From the IMG/VR virus record IMGVR_UViG_3300020432_000001, positions 1 through 58,008 of that record: a stretch of DNA of 58,008 nucleotides; one strand, given 5' to 3'. Shown one piece after another: positions 11,215 through 58,008 of the stretch. Made by a program: the position numbers and the translations under genes. The notes under the pieces are model-generated. The model did not search any database. It had not been told where the DNA came from and was given only the letters and a program-made list of their open reading frames with translations. This stretch comes from a virus. Taxonomy: Duplodnaviria > Caudoviricetes. The first letter of the stretch is position 1. Each line of letters opens with the position of its first letter.

Positions 11215-11476
11215 ATTTAGTTTCTTTACATTTTTGTAGAGCTTCACGTTTCCATTGACCCATATTCTTTAAGCCTTCTGGTTCTCTATTCTCACTTCTA
11301 TACCATTGAAGTCCTCTTTGGTATTCGTTTTCGATTATTAATTCATCCAACTCTTGAGCGCTCATTTGATTGTCAAGATCTGGATCCATTCCAAGACCTT
11401 TTAATGCCGTCTTTGTATCAGGTTCCAAACCTAATCTTACTGGAAGTATTCCTTTCTTATGCGAAGAAGTAGTCAC
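11213..11476 (-). CDS. Hypothetical protein downstream of the T7-like RNAP
   Basis: 87-aa ORF overlapping the RNAP stop and ending at the terminator. Confidence 0.65.
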   Translation of the reverse strand: MTTSSHKKGILPVRLGLEPDTKTALKGLGMDPDLDNQMSAQELDELIIENEYQRGLQWYRSENREPEGLKNMGQWKREALQKCKETK

Positions 11477-13646
11477 TGTTCTTTACCTCTCTAATATCTA
11501 AGCTGCCTAGCTTAGGTTGTTGATAGTTAAAATTATCTGGGTTTGTTACAATCATTCTTTCAATGACTTCAAAGAAGTTAGAATAGCTATACATTGTAAT
11601 GAATTCTTCTTTAATAAGATTTAGTAATTCATCTACATCACATGCATGTACACTATATGAATCATGAACTGCGCCAAAATCCCCTCCCCATTTAGCAATC
11701 ACTTTAGCCATATGTGCAGCATCCATAGAGTGCACAAAGTTAGGTGAGATACCAGACATAAAAGATCTTATCTTTGGTTTGTCTGTAGGTTCTTTACCGA
11801 CATGTTGTATTCTTATAGTATCAGTTTCTTCTTTGCTACCATCCTCTTTAGTTAAAATAGGTTTAACCTTTCTTTTACTACAGCTGATAATAGCTTTCTC
11901 TTTAAATTCATTCTCAACGAATGCTTCGTATATAACTGGAAACCCAGAAGGTGTAGTCCATCTTATAGACTTTTGTTTGATGTTCTTAGAATACTCTGAT
12001 GCTATCTCAGCTTCAGCAATCTTTTGTAAGAACTTCATTGTTTGTAGTGGACCTGCACAAACTTTATCTATTGCTTTAATTAAATGCTTAGCAAGTAATT
12101 CACAGTCCTCTTCAGTTATATTATACTTATTTAAATACCCTTCAACATGACAGTCAAGATACATATTTTCTGCAATCTTTTGTGCTCCAGCACTGTATGC
12201 TCGAGTCATTGAACCGCGTTTAGCTATACCTTTACGTATATGTTTCATTGGCATTTGTCTTTCTTCAAACCAATCAGGAACTCTTTTAATTAAATCTTTA
12301 GCACATTGTACATAAAAATCTTTTTGTATATCCTGTGGTACAATTCCAACTAACTCTCCTGCTTCTTTGTCTTTAGACATAGCACATAAATGCTGCCATC
12401 CATTATTAGAACCGTCAATTGGTATTGGAAGATAAGTAATATATTCTTCCTGATCTAGTGCATCTTTAATTTCTAATACACTAGCTAGCAAGCTAATAGG
12501 TTTCTCTGCATTAGGATCTATAATTTCTTTGTTAGCTATTTCTAATAGCCTATCAATATTATTATCGGTCCATGCTTCACGATCTTCTAACGTCATCTTA
12601 TCTACAGATATATCATCTAACTCTTCGTCTTTTAAGTAAGGTTTATAATCTGTTGTTAACCAGTTAGGTAAACTATCTTTATGATAAGTTTCATTATAGC
12701 ATACAGCTATATGAATCTTTAATCTTCTTAATCCTGCATCAGTCATAGGTTTACCTCTAGCAAAAAGCATTTGGCCTCTTGCTATATCGTTACCTTGAAA
12801 GTTTAGGAATGGTGTAGTATAATATATTCTACCACGATAATCTGCTTCAACATATTGATAAAATGTTTTGTTACCTATTAGTTTAGATCGTGCCATAGTT
12901 AAATCAAATTCTATTATCTTTGATTTATATTTCTTAGGAAAGTCTTTGTATTGATCTAGTATTTTATTTCGATTACGATTTAAAATATTACGAACTTTAT
13001 CATTAACTTTCCATTCAGTTTGCTGTAATACATTCATGCTTTTAATAAAGCTATTAGCTAGGTAAGGTTTAAACTCTTTGCTTCTATCATGTGTCCATCC
13101 TTTTATTACAGGTCGTTCAGTAGGTTGCATTAAAGAATTAATAGGTTCTGGCTTTTCAAATACAGTTCCTTTTAATAAATCCATACTACCTTCTGGCACA
13201 AGTAAATCCCACTTCTCTGGTATTACTATATAATGTGCGCGGCTTCTCTTTAAACTACGGTCTAAAGATTCTACTGGAATAAATGTGTTATCCCTGGTTT
13301 TACCTATATTAATTTGATGTGTTTGATAAAAAGGCTCTAAGAATAAATCCCCCATCATAACTCGAAGTTTAAACCAATCCCAAGGTGCATTATCTTTATT
13401 AGAATATTTTATTTCTGTTAAGATATGAGTGCCAATTGCTACACTTAAATGTGTAAGGTTAGCTTCACCTTGGTATGATTTGTTTCCTCTCATACTATTA
13501 CGAGCAAAGTGTTGTTGGATAGTGTCCATAGTAAATACTAAGTACGCTTTTAAATCTTCTAACGAAGTTTCTTTCAAAAGATTACAAGCAATATGTGCTT
13601 TAGATTTAGTAATCTTTTTCTTTAAGTATCCAAGTTGTTCCTCCAT
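11457..13646 (-). CDS. T7-like single-subunit DNA-dependent RNA polymerase (short, 729 aa)
   Basis: ADYRGRIY, PIDGSNNGWQHL (motif A), RKGIAKRGSMTRAYS (motif B), WTTPSGFPV, PNFVHSMDAAH and AVHDSY (motif C). Confidence 0.95.
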   Translation of the reverse strand: MEEQLGYLKKKITKSKAHIACNLLKETSLEDLKAYLVFTMDTIQQHFARNSMRGNKSYQGEANLTHLSVAIGTHILTEIKYSNKDNAPWDWFKLRVMMGDLFLEPFYQTHQINIGKTRDNTFIPVESLDRSLKRSRAHYIVIPEKWDLLVPEGSMDLLKGTVFEKPEPINSLMQPTERPVIKGWTHDRSKEFKPYLANSFIKSMNVLQQTEWKVNDKVRNILNRNRNKILDQYKDFPKKYKSKIIEFDLTMARSKLIGNKTFYQYVEADYRGRIYYTTPFLNFQGNDIARGQMLFARGKPMTDAGLRRLKIHIAVCYNETYHKDSLPNWLTTDYKPYLKDEELDDISVDKMTLEDREAWTDNNIDRLLEIANKEIIDPNAEKPISLLASVLEIKDALDQEEYITYLPIPIDGSNNGWQHLCAMSKDKEAGELVGIVPQDIQKDFYVQCAKDLIKRVPDWFEERQMPMKHIRKGIAKRGSMTRAYSAGAQKIAENMYLDCHVEGYLNKYNITEEDCELLAKHLIKAIDKVCAGPLQTMKFLQKIAEAEIASEYSKNIKQKSIRWTTPSGFPVIYEAFVENEFKEKAIISCSKRKVKPILTKEDGSKEETDTIRIQHVGKEPTDKPKIRSFMSGISPNFVHSMDAAHMAKVIAKWGGDFGAVHDSYSVHACDVDELLNLIKEEFITMYSYSNFFEVIERMIVTNPDNFNYQQPKLGSLDIREVKNSDYFFA

Positions 13647-14077
13647 TTATTGCCCTTTACTTTTATGTTATTATTTAATAGTAATAATATACCTGCTTCA
13701 TCAGTATATGTTTCACTGAAAAGAACTCTTGTTATACCTGCTTGCATTATAAGTTTAGCGCATTCAATACAAGGTGAGAGAGTGCTATATAATGTAGCAC
13801 CCTCTGAACTTACTGTCCCCTTTGCTAACTTACATAATGCATTAGCTTCTGCATGTATAACTTCTTTTCTTGTAGAGCCATTAGCATTTTTACATTCATT
13901 ATCCATACCCGCAGGCATACCATTAAATCCGAATGCAAGTATATTATTATCTTTAACAACTACGACACCAACTTTATTGTCGGTATCGTGTGACATGTTA
14001 CTTACTTCCTTAGCAATATTTAAATACAAGTTATCATATCTAGCTTGTTTAGTTATTGCATTTGTGTAGTTACTCAT
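13622..14077 (-). CDS. dCMP deaminase
   Basis: KVGVVVV, GFNG, IHAEANAL and TLSPCIECAK zinc motifs. Confidence 0.92.
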   Translation of the reverse strand: MSNYTNAITKQARYDNLYLNIAKEVSNMSHDTDNKVGVVVVKDNNILAFGFNGMPAGMDNECKNANGSTRKEVIHAEANALCKLAKGTVSSEGATLYSTLSPCIECAKLIMQAGITRVLFSETYTDEAGILLLLNNNIKVKGNKWRNNLDT

Positions 14078-19318: not shown

Positions 19319-19852
19319 TTATTCATATTGTGAGTTTGCTACTTGACCTTTAAATTCATTTTCAAGATCGCGTTTTTCTCTTAACATTTGAAGTCTTTCT
19401 TTTTCTGATTCAAATATATCTGATAGTATTCCGCAATCATATTTAGTTATTTCAGGTCCTTTCCAACCTTCTGGTTTAACCATATCTGGTAAACCAAATG
19501 GATTCTTCCTGGATTTATTTGCTCCAGGTTCTTTAGCCATATTAGATTTATGTACTTCTTTCCATACTTTATCAGCATCACAATTAAATAATTCTAATGT
19601 ACCTATTGCAATAACAATAAGATCAATTAAACCATCAACTACTTCTTTGTGATCTTTATTTAAGAAAGCTGCTTGAGTTTCTTCAAACTCTTCTTCTAAG
19701 AAGTCTAATCTAAATGCTAAGAAATCATTTAATAATTTAAAATTTCTTGCTTCGAATTGGCGTCTAACCCATTCTTTAGCACCGAATTTATCATGCATGA
19801 TTCTAATATCATCATACCATTCTGAATAATTTTCGTTACGTTTTAAGCTCAT
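19319..19852 (-). CDS. MazG-like all-alpha (d)NTP pyrophosphohydrolase
   Basis: FLEEEFEET..EVVDGLIDLIVIAIG..EVHKSNMAK..KPEGWKGP, typical of phage MazG/PRA-PH-like NTP-PPases. Confidence 0.85.
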   Translation of the reverse strand: MSLKRNENYSEWYDDIRIMHDKFGAKEWVRRQFEARNFKLLNDFLAFRLDFLEEEFEETQAAFLNKDHKEVVDGLIDLIVIAIGTLELFNCDADKVWKEVHKSNMAKEPGANKSRKNPFGLPDMVKPEGWKGPEITKYDCGILSDIFESEKERLQMLREKRDLENEFKGQVANSQYE

Positions 19853-20648
19853 ACTTTATATTTCCTTTATGTTCATAGTTATATATTTCCATATGCTTTG
19901 GTTCAAAGTCATCTACGCTTAACTGTGGTTGCAAATGATAGTTAGCATCATAATGTACATAACCATTTTCTATTTGTGACCAAGCTGTACTAAAATGATC
20001 TGAATAAATATGTGCATCAGCTACCATTAGTTTTAGTGTACCTGACTTAGCACCAATTAAGTTAGACCAACATGCTAGCATAGTAGCACCAAATACCATA
20101 TCACTTGGTATACCTACCATCCAATCACCTGATCTTGAATACATTAACATAGATAAAGTTTTCTCATTATCATATTTATCTTCATCAACATAAAATTGAT
20201 ATAAGAAATGGCATGGTGGTAAGCTTAGATCTTCCATACCTTTAGGATTCCATGCGCTAATAATATGTCTTCTATCATATGGATTAGATCTAAGATTATT
20301 TAATACATTTCTTACTTGATTAACACCATTAAAATTATACCAACTATTACCGTAACTAAGACGTAACTCGCCAGTATCAGGATCTCCGAACTCATTCCAG
20401 TAATTACACCCCCATTTCTGAAAGTCTTTAACATTTTTAGGCTGTCTAATTATAGCAGCATATTCACCTAGTACACCTTCATAGTGTATCTTACGTGATG
20501 TTAGTAACGGGAAGTAATGATTACGCATATCAAATTCTAGTTCTTTAAATGGCAAAGATCTAGTATAACCATTACGACCTTCTTTCTGACGACCATATCT
20601 TAGTATGTCTTCAGCTATATTTAAATACTTTTGATTATATATTTGCAT
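19836..20648 (-). CDS. thyA: Thymidylate synthase (ThyA)-family protein with Asp at the dUMP-specificity Asn; candidate dCMP methylase/hydroxymethylase
   Basis: FPLLTSRK, RRHIISAWNP, LPPCH and DAHIY. RSGDWMVGIPSD aligns with E. coli RSCDVFLGLPFN, giving N177->D. Confidence 0.85.
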   Translation of the reverse strand: MQIYNQKYLNIAEDILRYGRQKEGRNGYTRSLPFKELEFDMRNHYFPLLTSRKIHYEGVLGEYAAIIRQPKNVKDFQKWGCNYWNEFGDPDTGELRLSYGNSWYNFNGVNQVRNVLNNLRSNPYDRRHIISAWNPKGMEDLSLPPCHFLYQFYVDEDKYDNEKTLSMLMYSRSGDWMVGIPSDMVFGATMLACWSNLIGAKSGTLKLMVADAHIYSDHFSTAWSQIENGYVHYDANYHLQPQLSVDDFEPKHMEIYNYEHKGNIKYELKT

Positions 20649-21371: not shown

Positions 21372-21394
21372 GAAAAATTTGCGATAGCAAATTT
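21372..21394 (-). promoter_or_regulatory. Hairpin promoter H1 (putative vRNAP promoter; hairpin on the plus/template strand, driving the replication operon)
   Basis: gaa-aaatttgc-gata-gcaaattt; one of five covarying copies. Confidence 0.75.
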
Positions 21395-22026: not shown

Positions 22027-22101
22027 TGGGGTAACTATTGAGACTTGAACTCAAACTAACAGAATCACAAACTGTCGTGCAACCGTTACACTATAGTTAC
22101 C
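22027..22101 (-). tRNA. tRNA-His(GTG) with encoded G-1, C73 and CCA
   Basis: Minus strand reads GGTAACTA-TAGTGTAACGGTTGCAC-G-ACAGT-TTGTGAT-TCTGT-TAGT-TTGAG-TTCAAGT-CTCAA-TAGTTACC-CCA: a full cloverleaf with one T-T mismatch at the base of the anticodon stem. Confidence 0.9.
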
Positions 22102-24040: not shown

Positions 24041-24535
24041 CTAAAATGGCATTTCAGAACTATTGCTAGTATCACTACCTTCACTTACAACAGGTTCGAA
24101 ATCAACAGGTGCTGTATATTCTTTAAAGTCTATAACTTGTACAGCAGTTAATGAATTAGCGATACCTTCACGACCGGCTTGTTTGTAAGGATATTGATAA
24201 ACAATAACATTACCTGTTGAGCCGTTACCGATTTGCGAAATCTTTTCGTGAGGTAAAGCAACAGCACTTGAATCAACAACTCTTACAGCAGAGTTAGCAT
24301 CACCATTAGCTTTTACAGCTTTACGCTTTAAGCTAACAGTAAACTTGGTTGAGTCCATTTTATCTTGTTTAACATTAAGATGATTAGAAGACCAAGTATC
24401 AGCTATAGCTTTGTCTGTAGTTGCTATTTGTAGTTCCCATTGTTCAGTGCCAAATGGATTTACAGGCTTTGATAGCTTAGCCCAATTTAATTCAACATTA
24501 TCTATACGATAATTTCTTGCTTCAAATTCTTGCAT
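24041..24535 (-). CDS. ssb: Single-stranded DNA-binding protein (T7 gp2.5-like OB fold)
   Basis: LNWAKL..P, IGNGSTGNV and LTAVQVIDF, with an acidic tail ending MPF. Confidence 0.8.
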   Translation of the reverse strand: MQEFEARNYRIDNVELNWAKLSKPVNPFGTEQWELQIATTDKAIADTWSSNHLNVKQDKMDSTKFTVSLKRKAVKANGDANSAVRVVDSSAVALPHEKISQIGNGSTGNVIVYQYPYKQAGREGIANSLTAVQVIDFKEYTAPVDFEPVVSEGSDTSNSSEMPF

Positions 24536-24573
24536 GAATAGTACCTTTCCTATGCTAGAGTTAATATTTATAT

Positions 24574-24602
24574 TGAGCAGTTTTTCAGACTTACTCAGGT
24601 CT
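24574..24602 (-). promoter_or_regulatory. H-type RNA pseudoknot PK1 in the ssb leader
   Basis: AGAC-CTGAGTAA-GTCT-GAAAAAC-TGCTCA. Confidence 0.6.
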
Positions 24603-24671
24603 ACTCACTTCTCAATTGATATATGTATACCATGTATCTTAAAAAGATATTTAGTTAGAGAAGATGGTGAG

Positions 24672-24694
24672 GAAAAATTTGCGTTAGCAAATTT
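24672..24694 (-). promoter_or_regulatory. Hairpin promoter H2 (upstream of ssb)
   Basis: gaa-aaatttgc-gtta-gcaaattt. Confidence 0.75.
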
Positions 24695-24712
24695 AAAAGG
24701 TTAAGAAAGAGA

Positions 24713-24919
24713 TTATTGAGATTCTTGTTCCATAGCTTTAGCTTGGTTACGCCAAGAGTACATCATATCAATTTCTGATTGAGATAAAAGATCTTCAGCT
24801 TTAGGCTCAAGATGCTTTAAGATAAGATCAAGTTTCTTATTGATCTTTTCGAATTTCATAAAGATTAATAAGAACTCAGCTTCGAGATCTTTATCGGATA
24901 ACGGTTGTACTGGTCGCAT
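24713..24919 (-). CDS. Early hypothetical protein
   Basis: 68 aa with an AGGAG SD. Confidence 0.7.
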   Translation of the reverse strand: MRPVQPLSDKDLEAEFLLIFMKFEKINKKLDLILKHLEPKAEDLLSQSEIDMMYSWRNQAKAMEQESQ

Positions 24920-25013
24920 GTGCGATTCTCCTGTTGTGGGTTGACGGATGACAAGTATTTTTTAGAGAACACCAGAGCAACTATAACAAAACTCTGGTGT
25001 TCTCACTCTCTCT

Positions 25014-25277
25014 TTATATTTGATGGTGACAGTAGCCACATACACGTACATGGTCGTATTTTATTTCGCATGTATAGTGATTAAAGTCTTCTTCATGATA
25101 ACAATTATCGCATTTATATGAATCAGAATATATAGAATACTGATATTCATCATGATAATTATGAGTAGCAACAGGTTCTTTGGAATCTCTGAGAGCTGCT
25201 GCTTCTTCATAAGATATATTTTTAATTACAAATTTATTTTCATAGTTATCGAATAAGCTAAATGTTTCTATAGCCAT
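25014..25277 (-). CDS. Early hypothetical protein with a C-terminal zinc-ribbon-like motif
   Basis: CDNC...CGYC; GGAG SD; directly downstream of hairpin H3. Confidence 0.7.
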   Translation of the reverse strand: MAIETFSLFDNYENKFVIKNISYEEAAALRDSKEPVATHNYHDEYQYSIYSDSYKCDNCYHEEDFNHYTCEIKYDHVRVCGYCHHQI

Positions 25278-25315
25278 GGTTTTTATCTCCGAATTTGTTA
25301 AAAGAAAAGAGTATT

Positions 25316-25338
25316 GAAAAATTTACGTTAGTAAATTT
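25316..25338 (-). promoter_or_regulatory. Hairpin promoter H3
   Basis: gaa-aaatttac-gtta-gtaaattt (compensated stem). Confidence 0.75.
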
Positions 25339-25613
25339 AAGAGAAGATGTAAAGGAGGTGTTACAAACAATGCGTAATCACATAGGACGCGGGGTATATT
25401 GTCAGTATTCTGACAGAATAACTTCAAGTAAACTCCATTGTTAAAAATCTGACAGCACTATAAGCACTTATAGCCCCCTATACGGATGTCGGTACCAAAA
25501 AATTTTTTATAAAGATAAGATTATAATAATAATTATAAATATATAATAGTGATATTTTGATATGATTATATATATATTATATTTAGATATAATTATTATT
25601 ATAAAATAGTAAA

Positions 25614-25636
25614 GAAAAATTTATGATAATAAATTT
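25614..25636 (-). promoter_or_regulatory. Hairpin promoter H4 (C-free variant)
   Basis: gaa-aaatttat-gata-ataaattt; overlaps the stop codon of the G-less gene. Confidence 0.7.
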
Positions 25637-26147
25637 AAGAATTATTAGGAATATTATTATTTAATAATTGATTAAAGTTATTATGAGAGTTATTTTGTTG
25701 ATTATTAATATTATTTAAATTATTTTGAGTATATGTATTTAAAGATTTATTAATAATTTTATGAAATTGATTATATATTTGTAATGTAGAAGGATTATAA
25801 ATTATATAATAAATTATAAGTTGTTGATTATTTAATTGTTGAATAATAGTAGGTGAATTTATATATTGATGTAAATTATTTATTTGTTTAATAGTAGTAA
25901 TTAAAGAATAAATATTATTATTATATAAATGTATAGTATTATTATTTGAATTAAATAAAAAGAATTGTAAATTTAATTGGTTAGATTTAATAAGATTAGT
26001 TATATTAGGTTGATTAATATAAGTAAAAAGATTATTAAATTGTTGATGATTATATAGAGGATTATAATATAATTGTAAAGGATTTTTAGAATTATATTGT
26101 TGATAATTATTTTGTTGATAATTATTTTGGTAATTAAATGTGGACAT
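25635..26147 (-). CDS. 170-aa Asn/Gln/Tyr-rich protein encoded entirely by G-free codons; probable first early gene
   Basis: AGGAG-TGGGT-ATG start. Uses only F, L, I, S, P, T, Y, H, Q, N and K after Met. Stays open for 170 codons in a TAA-prone composition. Hairpin H5 lies upstream. Confidence 0.75.
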   Translation of the reverse strand: MSTFNYQNNYQQNNYQQYNSKNPLQLYYNPLYNHQQFNNLFTYINQPNITNLIKSNQLNLQFFLFNSNNNTIHLYNNNIYSLITTIKQINNLHQYINSPTIIQQLNNQQLIIYYIIYNPSTLQIYNQFHKIINKSLNTYTQNNLNNINNQQNNSHNNFNQLLNNNIPNNS

Positions 26148-26188
26148 ACCCACTCCTGTATAATTGTTATAGTTTAAATTTAAGTATA

Positions 26189-26212
26189 GAAAAATTTATG
26201 TTAATAAATTTT
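26189..26212 (-). promoter_or_regulatory. Hairpin promoter H5 (C-free variant) upstream of the G-less gene
   Basis: gaa-aaatttat-gtta-ataaattt. Confidence 0.75.
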
Positions 26213-26360
26213 ATTAGTATAGGGAGAGAGTAAGTATTAAAAGAATAGTAAGAGAAAGGTTATATAATTAGTAGGGGGTGTAAAAATATATTGGGGTATA
26301 TATAAAAATTAGATTAAATTTAGTTTATTCTTAAGATAGTATATATTATATCTCCCCCCT

Positions 26361-26377
26361 TATAGGAGACGTTTAAA
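26361..26377 (-). promoter_or_regulatory. Leftward T7-like promoter firing into the C-free tract
   Basis: Minus strand reads TTTAAACGTCTCCTATA|AGG. Confidence 0.6.
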
Positions 26378-26394
26378 TTTAAATGTCCCCTAAA
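26378..26394 (+). promoter_or_regulatory. T7-like promoter for terL and the late operon
   Basis: tttaaatgtcccctaaa|aga. Confidence 0.7.
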
Positions 26395-26416
26395 AGACAA
26401 TCTGAGGAGAAGTTTT

Positions 26417-28084
26417 ATGAATAAGAAGAAAGAACTATTAAGACTTCTCGAAGAAAAGAATAAAAGAAATAAATTAAAAGATTATGAAAATAACTTTACT
26501 TCCTTTGCATCTGACAATATAAAGATCATTACTAAGGATGCAAGGAGGGGCTTCATTAATTTTTCTTTTAATAGCTGCCAAAAAAAAATTACGGAACTTT
26601 TAGAAAAACAGTTAGAGGATACTGGTAAGGTCCGTGCGATTATTTTAAAAGCTAGGCAGCAAGGTATTAGTACATATTGTGCTGGGCGTGTATTTTGGAA
26701 AACTTATTTTACTCCTCATGCTCGTTCAGTTGTTATGGCACATGATAGTGCAACATCTGACGCACTATTTAATTTATCTAAAAATATTATTAGAAATATG
26801 AGTACTACATATAAGCCAAATGAAATTAAATCGAATGCTAAAGAGATTGTTATTTCATCACCTCACTTTAAAAAAGAAGGCGGAGATAAGCCTATATCGT
26901 CTTATAGATTATATACTGCGGGATCACCTGAAGCAGGTCGTGGTACAACACCAACCATAGCACATCTATCAGAAGTTGCTTTCTGGCAACATGATGAAAA
27001 GATATTAGCTGGTTTGTTTCAGGGTATATCTGAAGCTCCGGGTACTGAAGTTATACTTGAGTCAACAGCTAACGGTGCGCAAGGTGAATTCTATAGATTA
27101 TGGAAAGGTGCATTAGAAGGCGAAAATGAGTACTTACCGATATTCCTTCCATGGTTTTCTACAGATGAATACTATAGAAAACCTCCCGAAGGTTTCGAAC
27201 GTTCCTCTGATGAGGAGCTACTAGTAGAGCAGCACAACCTAAACAACGGACAACTCTACTGGCGTCGGTTGAAGATTGCTGAAGGTGGGGAACTAAAGTT
27301 CCGCCAGGAATACCCAGCAACTCCCGATGAAGCTTTTATTACAGCAGGTAAATCTGTTTTTGCAATGGAAAAAGTAAACAACTTAATACCTGTTACTCCA
27401 GATAAAAAAATGCTATTTGATTTTGATTCACTTACATGGGAGACATCTAAAGATGGGAATTTGGATATATGGGAGTATCCTGACTGGGATAGCAATTATA
27501 TTCTTGCTGCCGATGTTGCATTAGGCGTAGGCCAAGATTATTCAGCAGCAGTTGTTATGGATACAGATAGAAAAGTAATTGCTTTGTATCGTGACAGCTA
27601 TATTGATCCAAGTAAGTTTGGTGATTTGTTGTTTTACCTTGGTAGGTATTATAATAATGCATTGCTAACTGTTGAAAGTAATTCAATGGGGGTTGCAACA
27701 TTATCTCGGCTTGCACAGATGAATTATATAAATTTATATAAACAAACAAAAATTTCAGCTATATCAAAAGAGGAAGGTACAACACCTGGCTTTAGAACAA
27801 CTCAGGTAACAAAACCACATATAATAGGTAATCTTAAAAATGCTGTAGAAAATGATGATATATGGATAGCATCTAAAACAATTATACAGGAATTAAAAGA
27901 TTATGTTAGTACCGACTCCGGAAGAACTGAGGCTGCTCCTGGTTGTCATGATGACACTATTATGGCTACAGCTATTGCCTTAGAAACATTAAGAACACAT
28001 TACGACAAGTTAACTATGAATAAAGTACCGTGGTCGCAAAAAGCAGATAATTTTTTGTTTGATGATGATACACAGTGGCTTTAA
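26417..28084 (+). CDS. terL: Terminase large subunit
   Basis: ILKARQQGIST (Walker A), HLSEVAFW (Walker B), ESTANG, ADVALGVGQDYS and HDDTIMA nuclease motifs. Confidence 0.95.
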   Translation: MNKKKELLRLLEEKNKRNKLKDYENNFTSFASDNIKIITKDARRGFINFSFNSCQKKITELLEKQLEDTGKVRAIILKARQQGISTYCAGRVFWKTYFTPHARSVVMAHDSATSDALFNLSKNIIRNMSTTYKPNEIKSNAKEIVISSPHFKKEGGDKPISSYRLYTAGSPEAGRGTTPTIAHLSEVAFWQHDEKILAGLFQGISEAPGTEVILESTANGAQGEFYRLWKGALEGENEYLPIFLPWFSTDEYYRKPPEGFERSSDEELLVEQHNLNNGQLYWRRLKIAEGGELKFRQEYPATPDEAFITAGKSVFAMEKVNNLIPVTPDKKMLFDFDSLTWETSKDGNLDIWEYPDWDSNYILAADVALGVGQDYSAAVVMDTDRKVIALYRDSYIDPSKFGDLLFYLGRYYNNALLTVESNSMGVATLSRLAQMNYINLYKQTKISAISKEEGTTPGFRTTQVTKPHIIGNLKNAVENDDIWIASKTIIQELKDYVSTDSGRTEAAPGCHDDTIMATAIALETLRTHYDKLTMNKVPWSQKADNFLFDDDTQWL

Positions 28085-56232: not shown

Positions 56233-58008
56233 ATGAAATATAAAGCCACTCAAAAAGACCGCTATGGTAATATGAAATCTCTAGAAATCACAATGGATAA
56301 TCAGCTAGAAGTTCCTCCTATGGCTTCAGCTGTACCCATGTACGATCATCCTGGAGAACCTAAAGGCACTGATACTGTACCAGCTTGGCTTACTCCTGGC
56401 GAATTTGTTGTTAATAAAGAAGCCACTGATTTATTTGGACCACAAATTAAAGAAATGAATGATATAGGTAGAGAAATTCAAAATGGTGAAATACCTATGT
56501 ATGCTATGTCAGGTAAAAAAGTACAAAGCATGCTTGACCAAATTATGAGTTCTGAAAAAGCTAAAGGTGGTGGGGATCAGTTTACTCATTATAAAGGGGA
56601 TAAGCCTACCAAATATGGAATTACTTTAGAAACATATAGAGAACATATAAATCCAAAAGCAACTATAGAAGATCTTAAAAAGCTGACAGAAAAAGGTGCT
56701 AAAGATATTTTTAAAAAATACTATTATGAAAAATATAAAATAAATCAGCTTCCTGATTATATGCAACATAATGTTTTAGATATGGCTATTAATGCAGGAC
56801 CTGGTAATGCTATTAAATTATTACAACAAGAAATAAATAGTACATTACCTGAAGGATCAAAGATAGATGTTGATAATTTTATAGGACCTCAAACACTTAA
56901 AGCTGCAAAAAATTATGCTAATAAAAATGAATTTGATAATTCATATGGAGTAGCACGATTAAACTATTATAATCAGGTAGCACAAAACAATCCTGAAAAA
57001 AGTAAATTCTTAGAAGGATGGCAAAATAGAACTAATAAATTTATAGAGCCTAGAGAAATATCTTTACCAGTTCCTAAACCAAGTAGGGATGCTGAAGGAA
57101 ATGTTATATCTCCTAATTTGGAGGTTGAGAAACCAACCGATATTCCCAAGCCTAATGAAGACTCCGGGGGATTTAGTTTGTTCAATCTTTTTAAGCGTAG
57201 CAATTCTGATGACAATGTGCCTACGATAGCAGATATGAATGAACAAGCAACTGAAAATCCTTATAAGTCATCTTTTGTAGTTGCTAAAAATAGAGGTGGT
57301 GAAATTCCACAGTACTTAGAGCCTGGAGATAAAGTAAAAGAAATAATTGAAAACTCTAGAAATTTAGAAAATATATATAGTGCTCCTCCAAATGATGATA
57401 TGTATTCAGGAGTAGGTAAAGTTTTTCATCCTGATCCTACAATTAATAAAGCACTTCAAGAAGCAACAGCGGCTGTTGCAAGAGATACAAGTCAAGAAGA
57501 TGACTTAGGTAATGTTGCATCAGCAGTTCCTACAATTCCAGAGGTTCCTGTTTATGATCCTCAAGGAATAGGAGAAGGTATGTCTGATGAAGAGTTTAAT
57601 AAAATACAAGCTCAAGGACAAGACTTAGAAACAATGACTGCTGGATATGAAGGTGCTTATTCTCCTTTACTTAAAGATGTAGACTTTGGTAGTGGTAAAC
57701 CAAAAGACTATAGAAAAATTGGTGATAAATGGTATAGAGTTAGAGATGGTAAACTAGGTAGTAGGTTTGAACCTGGTACATTAGCATCTGATTCTGTAAA
57801 ATCTCTTCAAGCAATGAATTTAGATAGAATGCTAAATCAACCACCTCCTCCTTCAGAAGAAGAAGTTAAAGCTATGGCACAATCTGCGATGGGTAATGCA
57901 GGTATAGGTAGTAAAGTTATTACACCAGCTGCAGAAGTATTTATGGGAATGGGTACTGATGATGGTACTATCATGAGTAATATGGAAGAAGTTTCAAATA
58001 AAAAGAAA
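56233..58008 (+). CDS. N-terminal half of a ~1150-aa ejection protein with GH108 lysozyme and PG-binding domains (continues through the junction to 1754; absent from ORF track)
   Basis: AAGGAG SD. Manual translation gives GTDTVPAWLTPGEFVVNK, then SSEKAKGGG..DKPTKYGIT..KKYYY..VLDMAINAGPGNAIKLLQ..VDNFIGPQT..RLNYY..FLEGWQNR. The frame matches position 12. Confidence 0.85.
   Translation, partial: MKYKATQKDRYGNMKSLEITMDNQLEVPPMASAVPMYDHPGEPKGTDTVPAWLTPGEFVVNKEATDLFGPQIKEMNDIGREIQNGEIPMYAMSGKKVQSMLDQIMSSEKAKGGGDQFTHYKGDKPTKYGITLETYREHINPKATIEDLKKLTEKGAKDIFKKYYYEKYKINQLPDYMQHNVLDMAINAGPGNAIKLLQQEINSTLPEGSKIDVDNFIGPQTLKAAKNYANKNEFDNSYGVARLNYYNQVAQNNPEKSKFLEGWQNRTNKFIEPREISLPVPKPSRDAEGNVISPNLEVEKPTDIPKPNEDSGGFSLFNLFKRSNSDDNVPTIADMNEQATENPYKSSFVVAKNRGGEIPQYLEPGDKVKEIIENSRNLENIYSAPPNDDMYSGVGKVFHPDPTINKALQEATAAVARDTSQEDDLGNVASAVPTIPEVPVYDPQGIGEGMSDEEFNKIQAQGQDLETMTAGYEGAYSPLLKDVDFGSGKPKDYRKIGDKWYRVRDGKLGSRFEPGTLASDSVKSLQAMNLDRMLNQPPPPSEEEVKAMAQSAMGNAGIGSKVITPAAEVFMGMGTDDGTIMSNMEEVSNKKK
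57932..58008 (+). repeat. 77-bp terminal overlap identical to 1..77
   Basis: Direct sequence identity. Confidence 0.95.

Follow-up and report, generated by a model that had tools for sequence, protein, structure and literature searches.

The closest described counterpart of the locus reported here is a laboratory construct. The G-less cassette for in vitro transcription, which is said to go back to Sawadogo and Roeder in 1985, is a synthetic, non-coding stretch of several hundred nucleotides that is transcribed into RNA without G and can be copied without GTP. Among natural sequences the avoidance of short targets is familiar, as ACA-less mRNAs resist the mRNA interferase MazF and phage genomes avoid restriction sites; the target is purged, and amino-acid or synonymous changes keep the function. 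Counter-defence genes that are expressed first are likewise known, such as gene 0.3 of T7, which encodes the highly acidic DNA mimic Ocr, and the pre-early genes of T5. According to the passages of PMC6526412 that treat the question, stretches of 20-200 nt lacking one nucleotide are mostly absent from natural DNA and RNA, apart from repeats, poly(A) and some pseudogenes. We analysed a stretch of 58,008 nt from a virus (IMG/VR record IMGVR_UViG_3300020432_000001; Duplodnaviria, Caudoviricetes), referred to below as the window, whose minus strand carries a 170-codon gene (25635..26147) containing one G, that of its start codon. The gene lies within a three-letter tract (25497..26329) whose plus strand lacks C, and whose minus (sense) strand lacks G, at all but seven positions.

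The window cassette resembles the laboratory one in its length and in specifying an RNA without G that could be made without GTP; unlike it, the cassette is natural, conserved, maintained by selection and coding for a protein with a predicted fold. Avoidance of interferase and restriction sites removes motifs of 3-8 nt, whereas here a whole letter has disappeared from about 830 nt and the protein is written in an 11-letter alphabet. Like gene 0.3 of T7 and the T5 pre-early genes, the locus comes first in an early region, here that of a podovirus with a T7-like RNA polymerase and in a variable accessory slot, and the G-less gene is the first gene of the early transcription module, judged by the minus-strand order and by its divergence from the terminase large subunit (TerL) gene. 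Searches of PHROG, Pfam, Foldseek and VIA found no sequence or fold similarity between its product and those proteins, and the product contains no D or E, unlike the acidic Ocr. Compared with the background given in the relevant passages of PMC6526412, the tracts found here are long (650-950 nt), non-repetitive, coding and conserved. A full-text literature search found no description of natural single-nucleotide-free genes, and the passages of PMC6918029 around Roseobacter phage CRP-7, which carries a second version described below, do not mention base-free tracts. Selected coding genes lacking one nucleotide, in two independent versions (no G, almost no A) in the same slot, are new as far as we found.

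The plus strand of the tract consists of two C-free runs, 25497-26144 (648 nt) and 26157-26329 (173 nt), and the base counts over the 833-nt span were T 363, A 350, G 113 and C 7. The seven C (26145, 26149-26151, 26153, 26155 and 26156) are the minus-strand G of AGGAG-TGGGT-ATG, in which the Shine-Dalgarno (SD) sequence AGGAG (26153-26157) and the spacer TGGGT (together 26148..26157, minus strand) hold, with the ATG, the sole G of the tract. A first-pass annotation of the DNA had described these runs and their exceptions, and both were confirmed at the exact coordinates. Elsewhere in the window C-free runs did not exceed 58 nt, and the maxima for runs without A, G and T were 34, 48 and 29 nt. 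C makes up 14.9% of the plus strand (8615/58008), and by arithmetic from these counts the chance of a 648-nt C-free run is about 10^-45. Minus-strand G, counted per 100 nt from 26416 downward, ran 15, 0, 7, 0, 0, 0, 0, 0, 0, 20, 11 and so on, a sharp step without a gradient; later early genes contain 14-20% G, and the sense-strand background of the early module is 18.2%. C was kept at 13.6% on the G-less strand, and the GC content was 0.216 in 25001-26000 vs about 0.33 for the genome. The tract is not an assembly artefact, since independent metagenome contigs reproduced it, two of them nearly identical (L003, L007) and two diverged (L006, L013). Of base-free runs reaching 100 nt, the fetched loci (1.29 Mb) and the window contained 54, and 52 of them lay at the TerL/early junction. 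Matches to Corynebacterium phages within the tract were rejected as an A/T tandem repeat without G or C, which is not homologous.

The open reading frame (ORF) ends in TAA. The program-made ORF listing extends it to a GTG at 26153, overlapping the SD sequence, and the ATG was taken here as the start. Apart from the initiator Met, the protein contains only F, L, S, Y, P, H, Q, I, T, N and K, the 11 amino acids with G-free codons, as the first-pass annotation had stated; it is rich in N, Q and Y. Over the same span, 11 and 40 stop codons interrupt the other two frames. Among mononucleotide shuffles of the tract, 171 or more codons stayed open in 1 of 20,000 cases, the longest frame averaging 54, so that the earlier estimate of about one in a million for 170 open codons was right about the rarity and wrong about its degree. 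At codons with a G-containing synonym, the G-free one was used in 72 of 72 cases (log10 P = -5.3 under the window's own codon usage), which bore out the claim that G is avoided even at synonymous positions. Amino-acid composition accounts for most of the G-lessness, as the 11 residues make up 57% of the ordinary proteins of this genome. It does not account for all of it, because the 72 synonymous choices, the flanks and the hairpin copies of the tract also avoid G.

The untranslated parts followed the same rule, as had been noted for the non-coding flanks. The 3' trailer (25497..25634, minus strand) is 138 nt long without any G, the 5' leader (26158..26329, minus strand) is G-free and C-rich in patches, and the 182-nt 5' flank of the ORF has 6 G, all in the SD region; in total the untranslated flank of 311 nt has G only in the SD. 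A hairpin element, AAATTTry-nnnn-ryAAATTT, occurs five times in the window against 1.1 copies expected by chance. The stems of the three copies outside the tract (21375-21394, 24675-24694 and 25319-25338) contain G.C pairs, and those of the two inside, one in the leader (26192..26211, minus strand) and one overlapping the stop codon (25617..25636, minus strand), consist of A.T pairs only, which agrees with the earlier statement that they were recoded with compensation. The A.U hairpin of the leader was kept in four relatives.

Comparison with relatives extended these results. Orthologues in L007, L006 and L013 are 98%, 86% and 69% identical to the window protein, with SD, ATG and reading frame all conserved; 5' of the ATG, AGGAG or GGAG was retained in L006, L007, L012 and L013. 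The ratio of nonsynonymous to synonymous substitution rates (dN/dS), a check proposed by the first-pass annotation together with that on the frame and SD, was 0.32-0.38, and the differences were concentrated at third codon positions. The coding sequences of the window, L006, L007 and L013 have one G each, with no G gained across a dS of about 0.6, and in the five database homologues that were fetched, the most distant at 49% identity, no residue occurs besides the 11 and the initiator Met. These findings demonstrated that the G-less gene is a real gene under purifying selection. The absence of G reflects selection on the nucleotides themselves and not mere AT-richness, because it involves synonymous sites, untranslated flanks and compensated hairpins and has persisted across divergence, as had been proposed. 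The cassette, made up of a control region, the leader, the SD and ATG, the ORF and the trailer, is thus kept G-free on its sense strand by nucleotide-level purifying selection.

The window is a whole phage genome in circular assembly, with an identical overlap of 77 nt (1-77 and 57932-58008) and a true length of 57,931 nt; because of this circular assembly with its overlap, the genome ends are not visible. Its TerL is nearest to that of CRP-7, and the phage is a CRP-7-type marine podovirus with a T7-like RNA polymerase. The G-less gene opens the early/replication module, which runs on the minus strand from 26147 down to 11457 and encodes a gp2.5-like single-stranded DNA-binding protein (SSB), a ThyA-family enzyme, a MazG-like pyrophosphatase, DNA polymerase, exonuclease, primase-helicase, dCMP deaminase and, last, the T7-like RNA polymerase (11457..13646). 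Its divergent neighbour at a distance of 270 nt is the TerL gene (26417..28084, plus strand; phrog_2, E 1.1e-32), the anchor in all our locus comparisons, which is followed by the structural genes on the plus strand.

Close relatives were defined as 62 loci with a TerL at least 79% identical, of which 46 with more than 700 nt upstream were counted. A C-free run of at least 150 nt adjoined TerL in 22 of the 46, and the other 24 had none, carrying other genes there or giving no clear picture; the check for normal composition at this place in relatives thus had a mixed outcome; in the group with 65-68% TerL identity the run was present in 0 of 10. Some relatives without the tract carry other genes in the first slot, e.g., a SLOG-family protein in L009 and L011. 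This YspA-related gene (PF10686; L009 5323-5706 and L011 1733-2116, minus strands) has 25% G, and the best PHROG match of its product is labelled 'GTP-binding domain'. In further relatives (L046/L048, L032/L034 and L055) unrelated ORFs of low G content (3.8-5%) occupy the slot, and PHROGs and Pfam gave nothing for their products or for the A-less protein described below. The first slot is variable, a hot spot for accessory genes. In partly depleted copies the tolerated G falls mainly on the first base of Glu, Ala, Val and Asp codons (61/85). GAA is the commonest of these tolerated G codons (16 cases) and is freely used, and avoidance of the GA dinucleotide was rejected for this reason; GA is the specificity given for the toxin CmdT in the relevant part of PMC11618068, and a CmdT-type agent, which the first-pass annotation had brought up, is thus unlikely. 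A third variant with another missing base was not established: L053 showed tandem repeats, and in L106, L109, L111, L127 and L129 the sequence begins only within the control region.

CRP-7, which represents a sister lineage, shares its genome layout with the window, and at its junction a different letter is missing. On the TerL-sense strand there are T-free runs of 224, 168, 104 and 62 nt, and T-free runs also occur at the junction in the relatives L085, L096, L114 and L117. The early-sense strand carries an ORF almost without A (L002 113-499, minus strand) that starts at a lone ATG (L002:499), the sole interruption; before it stand GTGGGG, itself without A, and 107-226 nt of A-free leader (CRP-7, L096, L114 and L117). 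It has 113-128 codons, and its stop abuts the SD of gp01. As A-free sequence cannot hold stop codons, the open frame alone proves nothing here. Synonymous choices are informative: the A-free codon was used in 109/109, 101/102, 105/105 and 99/99 cases in CRP-7, L096, L114 and L117 (log10 P -25 to -28), and nearly all remaining A belongs to the ATG, the stop or GAG, GAC and AAG codons at conserved positions. The dN/dS was 0.22-0.33, with differences by codon position of, e.g., [32, 19, 58]. The family comprises 67 database clusters, with a median of 96.5% of residues drawn from the 10 amino acids with A-free codons vs a background of 46%. The annotated gp72 of CRP-7 (MK613349.1 57271-57966; L002 141-836, plus strand) lies on the T-free strand, where no stop can occur, and is probably a trivial open frame, the selected ORF being on the opposite strand.

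The A-less protein is unrelated to the G-less protein and fills the same genomic slot. Its model has a domain at residues 38-121 with predicted local distance difference test (pLDDT) values of 80-93, forming a five-stranded barrel with a helix between strands 3 and 4, as in the oligonucleotide/oligosaccharide-binding (OB) fold. It aligned with 3a54_A (Z 9.7, root-mean-square deviation (rmsd) 2.0, 73 aligned residues); OB-fold toxin B subunits scored Z 8.1-8.6, and the OB domains of SSB, PriB, RecG and RecJ Z 4.5-5.5. The model thus suggests an OB-fold-like protein, a fold that alone assigns no function. Because this unrelated gene and the other low-G ORFs fill the same slot, the rule follows the position and not the protein. 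It acts on nucleotides, covers a unit of the size of a transcript and spares only indispensable positions.

The G-less protein itself belongs to a family of wider composition. A database search gave seven homologues, and a deep profile search of 1.84 billion representatives gave 14 proteins at E <= 0.001, all unnamed. The latter are graded: at one end stand members coded wholly without G, at the other members (P0041, P0044) rich in R, G, D, E, V and M, and across the family the share of residues from the 11-letter set is 0.72 to 1.0. A four-letter homologue with 17.1% G lies in L145, bracketed by terminator hairpins and divergent from a TerL 61% identical to that of the window. The four-letter homologues (P0041, P0044 and L145) align with the G-less protein over its core, and in the alignment N, Q, K, S and I stand in place of D, E, R, G and V. 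The window copy therefore looks like a recoded member of a family of otherwise ordinary composition. AlphaFold2 predicted a folded core at about residues 28-135 with two beta-alpha-alpha-beta repeats (mean pLDDT 66, core blocks 68-91, predicted template modelling score 0.63). PHROG and Pfam families gave 0 matches each, the ESM Atlas search no usable match, and Foldseek against PDB and BFVD none at E <= 0.001; in the wide structure search (VIA) the best match to this model was a designed binder (Z 4.8, rmsd 3.2, 75 aligned), and no structural relative of the core was found in the three.

E. coli SSB ends in DDDIPF. The G-less protein ends in NNNIPNNS, without the acidic (D/N)-x-(L/I)-P-F tip of SSB and without the terminal F. 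Four-letter and intermediate homologues (P0041, P0045, P0043 and L145 5001-5339) end in DDLPF, NIPF or NLPF, and the gp2.5-like SSB of the window (24041-24535, minus strand) ends in EMPF. By analogy, the DDLPF-type tails hint at a role in an SSB partner network for the family, not for the window copy.

A conserved border and control region (26330..26396, minus strand) precedes the tract and is a putative promoter region. In the sense direction it shows a GTCTCC-TATAA-GGGGGG hairpin/palindrome (26359-26396), then TATAAT (26345-26350) and the last G at 26330; the motif was kept in the window, L006, L008, L012, L013, L015, L017, L025, L029, L052 and others. A second copy of TCCGTATAGGGGG (25473..25486, minus strand) lies directly beyond the 3' border, followed by hairpins and a T run. 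It is a candidate terminator or next promoter and was not conserved in L006 or L013. TATA(A)GGGGG was restricted on the minus strand to the two borders of the tract; AAGGATAG occurred at the junction alone. A general phage promoter consensus was rejected: the motifs are confined to the borders and the junction, and a repeat search of the whole window gave only the hairpin element. A scan for sigma-70-type promoters found 15 sites vs 16.0 in shuffles, i.e., no excess, and CTCCTATAAGGGGGGAGA presumably resembles promoters of the T7 group. Rfam covariance models gave 0 matches at E <= 0.1 in the window at 24500-27000 and in L002. A GC-rich intrinsic terminator directly follows the ORF in L012, L038 and L052, and G is tolerated 5' of the leader and 3' of the trailer. 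As the control region precedes it and terminators follow the ORF in these three relatives, the tract probably corresponds to one transcription unit.

The region of the leader (26090-26345) was no more structured than shuffled sequence (z = -0.17). Sequestration of the SD by a C-rich leader stretch was present in the minimum-energy fold and was rejected, as it is not conserved in relatives. The start codon lies in the loop of a small hairpin, GUGGG-UAUG-UCCAC (26140-26153, minus strand). In L006 and L007 this reads GUGGA...UCCAC, and the G-to-A change in the stem turns a G.U wobble into an A-U pair, and in L013 an alternative 4-bp stem, AGAC...GUCU, is possible at the start codon. The hairpin element described above is about 30 nt long and confined to the first third of the early module, before genes or directly after stop codons; on the minus strand it reads TTAAATTTrC-nnnn-GyAAATTT, then TTTTC and (A/T)TAC. 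Promoter, terminator, processing site and operator are candidates for its role.

We tentatively favour, with less than even confidence, the reading that one purine is kept out of the first early transcript since every copy of it exacts a price, either while the RNA is being made or in the RNA itself; the view of the first-pass annotation that something base-specific presses on the first gene remains reasonable. Each banned purine in the first early RNA, or the complementary pyrimidine in the template, would have a small independent cost, and the huge phage populations would purge all occurrences but the indispensable ones, i.e., the SD and ATG in the G-less gene and the Glu, Lys and Asp codons in the A-less gene. 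In this way the transcript would reach full length and be translated in the presence of a base-specific hazard, and its product would be the first to act. Candidate hazards would be viperin-type ddhGTP/ddhATP chain terminators, toxins that cut or modify RNA at a single base, and obstruction of the polymerase at modified template cytosines. According to the sections of 10.1101/2023.09.13.557418 on prokaryotic viperins, ddh-nucleotides terminate RNA chains, these enzymes produce ddhCTP, ddhUTP and ddhGTP, ddhATP is formed in vitro by some of them, and E. coli gains protection from T7 through viperin. The likeness, as far as those sections go, lies in a hazard from one nucleotide at every incorporation, reported against T7. 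By analogy, such a hazard would impose a multiplicative cost per base able to purge a letter; viperin is a candidate by this analogy only, and ddhATP is reported there only in vitro.

A cause at the level of transcription or RNA is favoured over one in duplex DNA because the tract borders follow transcript features, because the adjacent control region uses all four letters, and because both lineages drop a sense-strand purine and not the easier C. From the code table, a sense strand without C would still allow 15 amino acids, ATG, all stop codons and an SD. Several points weigh against a purine-free first transcript. No hazard, host or defence gene was identified, which leaves the mechanism to inference. 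A tract of at least 150 nt is missing in the 24 close relatives and 10 distant ones counted above, so that the pressure must be dispensable or host-specific. Viperin products, which reportedly act on the phage polymerase, may be irrelevant if the host RNA polymerase makes the cassette RNA. A G-free trailer of 138 nt would be superfluous under chain termination. Folding differs between the lineages (z = -0.17 for the window leader vs z = -4.4 for the CRP-7 tract), RNA-level and template-level causes are inseparable by sequence alone, and the strand argument is built on two independent cases. The more specific proposal that three-letter genes are antidote genes, written without the poisoned letter so that the first transcript alone is completed intact and its product neutralises a nucleotide-specific attack by the host, is in our estimate improbable. 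If it were true, the missing letter would report which attack a host lineage uses.

Protection of DNA instead of RNA could also place such a cassette at this position. If entry were coupled to transcription as in T7, the cassette could be the leading DNA, as the first-pass annotation had proposed, restriction-proof until its product acts, in line with the protect-first-DNA logic of T7 Ocr and the first-step-transfer DNA of T5. If one strand lacks a base, palindromes with that base pair are logically impossible, as are most Type I and III sites; either pair would serve for this, G/C in the window and A/T in CRP-7. The cassette lies at the divergence point beside TerL, where T7-like ends could lie, in an accessory hot spot; the junction has unique conserved motifs, with tandem AGGATAGG-type repeats in L053, and T7 has short repeat arrays beside its terminal repeat. 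We regard this shield as unlikely, though with a real chance. It would be incomplete, since the control region beside the tract has all four letters on both strands, and the genome ends were not located in the circular assembly. Evading particular host sites needs no removal of every G, a rule at the DNA level would allow the easier C-less sense strand where both lineages drop the purine, the borders coincide with transcript features such as terminators, and acidic residues, in which the DNA mimic Ocr is rich, are missing from the protein. A cause in the template itself, namely that virion DNA carries the phage's modified cytosine and a C-free template spares the first polymerase this base, seems less likely again. 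C5-modified pyrimidines are classic phage hypermodifications, the template lacks a pyrimidine in both lineages, and enzymes of the early module give indirect support, in this clade only. Its ThyA-family enzyme (19836..20648, minus strand; PF00303, E 2.8e-61; thymidylate-synthase fold family) has GIPSD where 6auj and 3ix6 have GVPFN, placing Asp for Asn at E. coli position 177, and this Asp was kept in 12 of 12 ThyA homologues of the clade. Position 177 sets the preference for dUMP or dCMP, and Asp prevails in contigs with modified cytosine, according to the part of PMC8670742 concerned. A MazG/PRA-PH-like pyrophosphatase gene (19319-19852, minus strand) overlaps the ThyA-family gene, and a dCMP deaminase gene (13622-14077, minus strand) lies in the same module; the window phage may thus put modified cytosine into its DNA. 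The Asp-type enzyme, however, occurs in relatives both with and without the tract, and a test for co-occurrence did not discriminate, as it was present in all 12 homologues examined. The NCBIfam thymidylate-synthase model was passed with 137.8 bits vs a cut-off of 108.35, so that an ordinary thymidylate synthase is possible. CRP-7, whose template lacks T, has neither ThyA nor ThyX (PF00303 and PF02511, 0/1 record each, with control genomes responding). Pfam on 10 of its early proteins gave AAA, MazG, DUF2201, DUF3310, GIY-YIG and a weak Nuc_deoxyrib_tr, nothing suggestive, and T-modification in CRP-7 was rejected. Moreover, host RNA polymerase transcribes the fully glucosylated hydroxymethylcytosine DNA of T4.

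No attacker at all is needed if the cassette serves expression physiology, for example through independence from a scarce purine nucleoside triphosphate in starved oligotrophic hosts, loss of pause sites, absence of internal starts and SD sequences, or minimal structure. G-free RNA forms A-U pairs only, the window leader is unstructured, and logically a G-free sequence has no ATG, GTG, TTG or SD except the real one, just as an A-free sequence has no AUG, canonical SD or stop codon. Low structure is, however, not common to both lineages, as the A-free RNA of CRP-7 is highly structured, and an unstructured mRNA as their shared property was rejected on these z-scores. Translation needs GTP and ATP regardless, tuning needs no removal of every occurrence, the 3' trailer included, and later early genes are of normal composition; we consider this explanation quite improbable. 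A mutational by-product, whether through strand-specific hypermutation (deamination, oxidative damage) or drift of a low-complexity N/Q-rich protein, would fit a tract that is more AT-rich than the genome and encodes an N/Q/Y-rich protein. It is disfavoured and has, in our view, hardly any chance, given that the SD and ATG were spared, the borders are sharp, and C was kept at 13.6% on the strand that lost G. Purifying selection on the protein, the compensated hairpin changes, the persistence across a dS of 0.6, and the confinement of A in the A-less gene almost only to Glu, Lys and Asp codons at conserved positions also stand against it.

The purine-free first transcript, if correct, implies a selective agent that acts per nucleotide on the first phage transcript, whose discovery could uncover a defence or a bottleneck in the physiology of bacteria abundant in the ocean. 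As CRP-7 is in culture, the question is directly testable. The cassettes also mean that proteins predicted to fold can be encoded in nature with 10-11 amino-acid types, and a single family whose members grade from ordinary composition to complete recoding offers a natural experiment with reduced alphabets. Three-letter cassettes are, in addition, natural tools for transcription with an omitted nucleotide.

Some minor observations concern the junction and its surroundings. The sequence (A/G)AGGATA(A/G) lies just 5' of the tract in both lineages (L002 at about 766-773, and the borders of L013, L015, L017, L029 and L037). It is tandemly repeated in L053 1-300, is not a general promoter within the two genomes, and could be a mark of the genome end or a regulator binding site. 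Many metagenome contigs of both lineages have a start or end in or beside the tract or control region (L003, L037, L040, L106, L109, L111, L127, L129 and L132), which could reflect physical genome ends or assembly trouble. The early module of the window also contains a tRNA-His (GTG) gene (22027-22100, minus strand), and CRP-7 has a tRNA-Arg (TCT), as given in the corresponding part of the CRP-7 paper.

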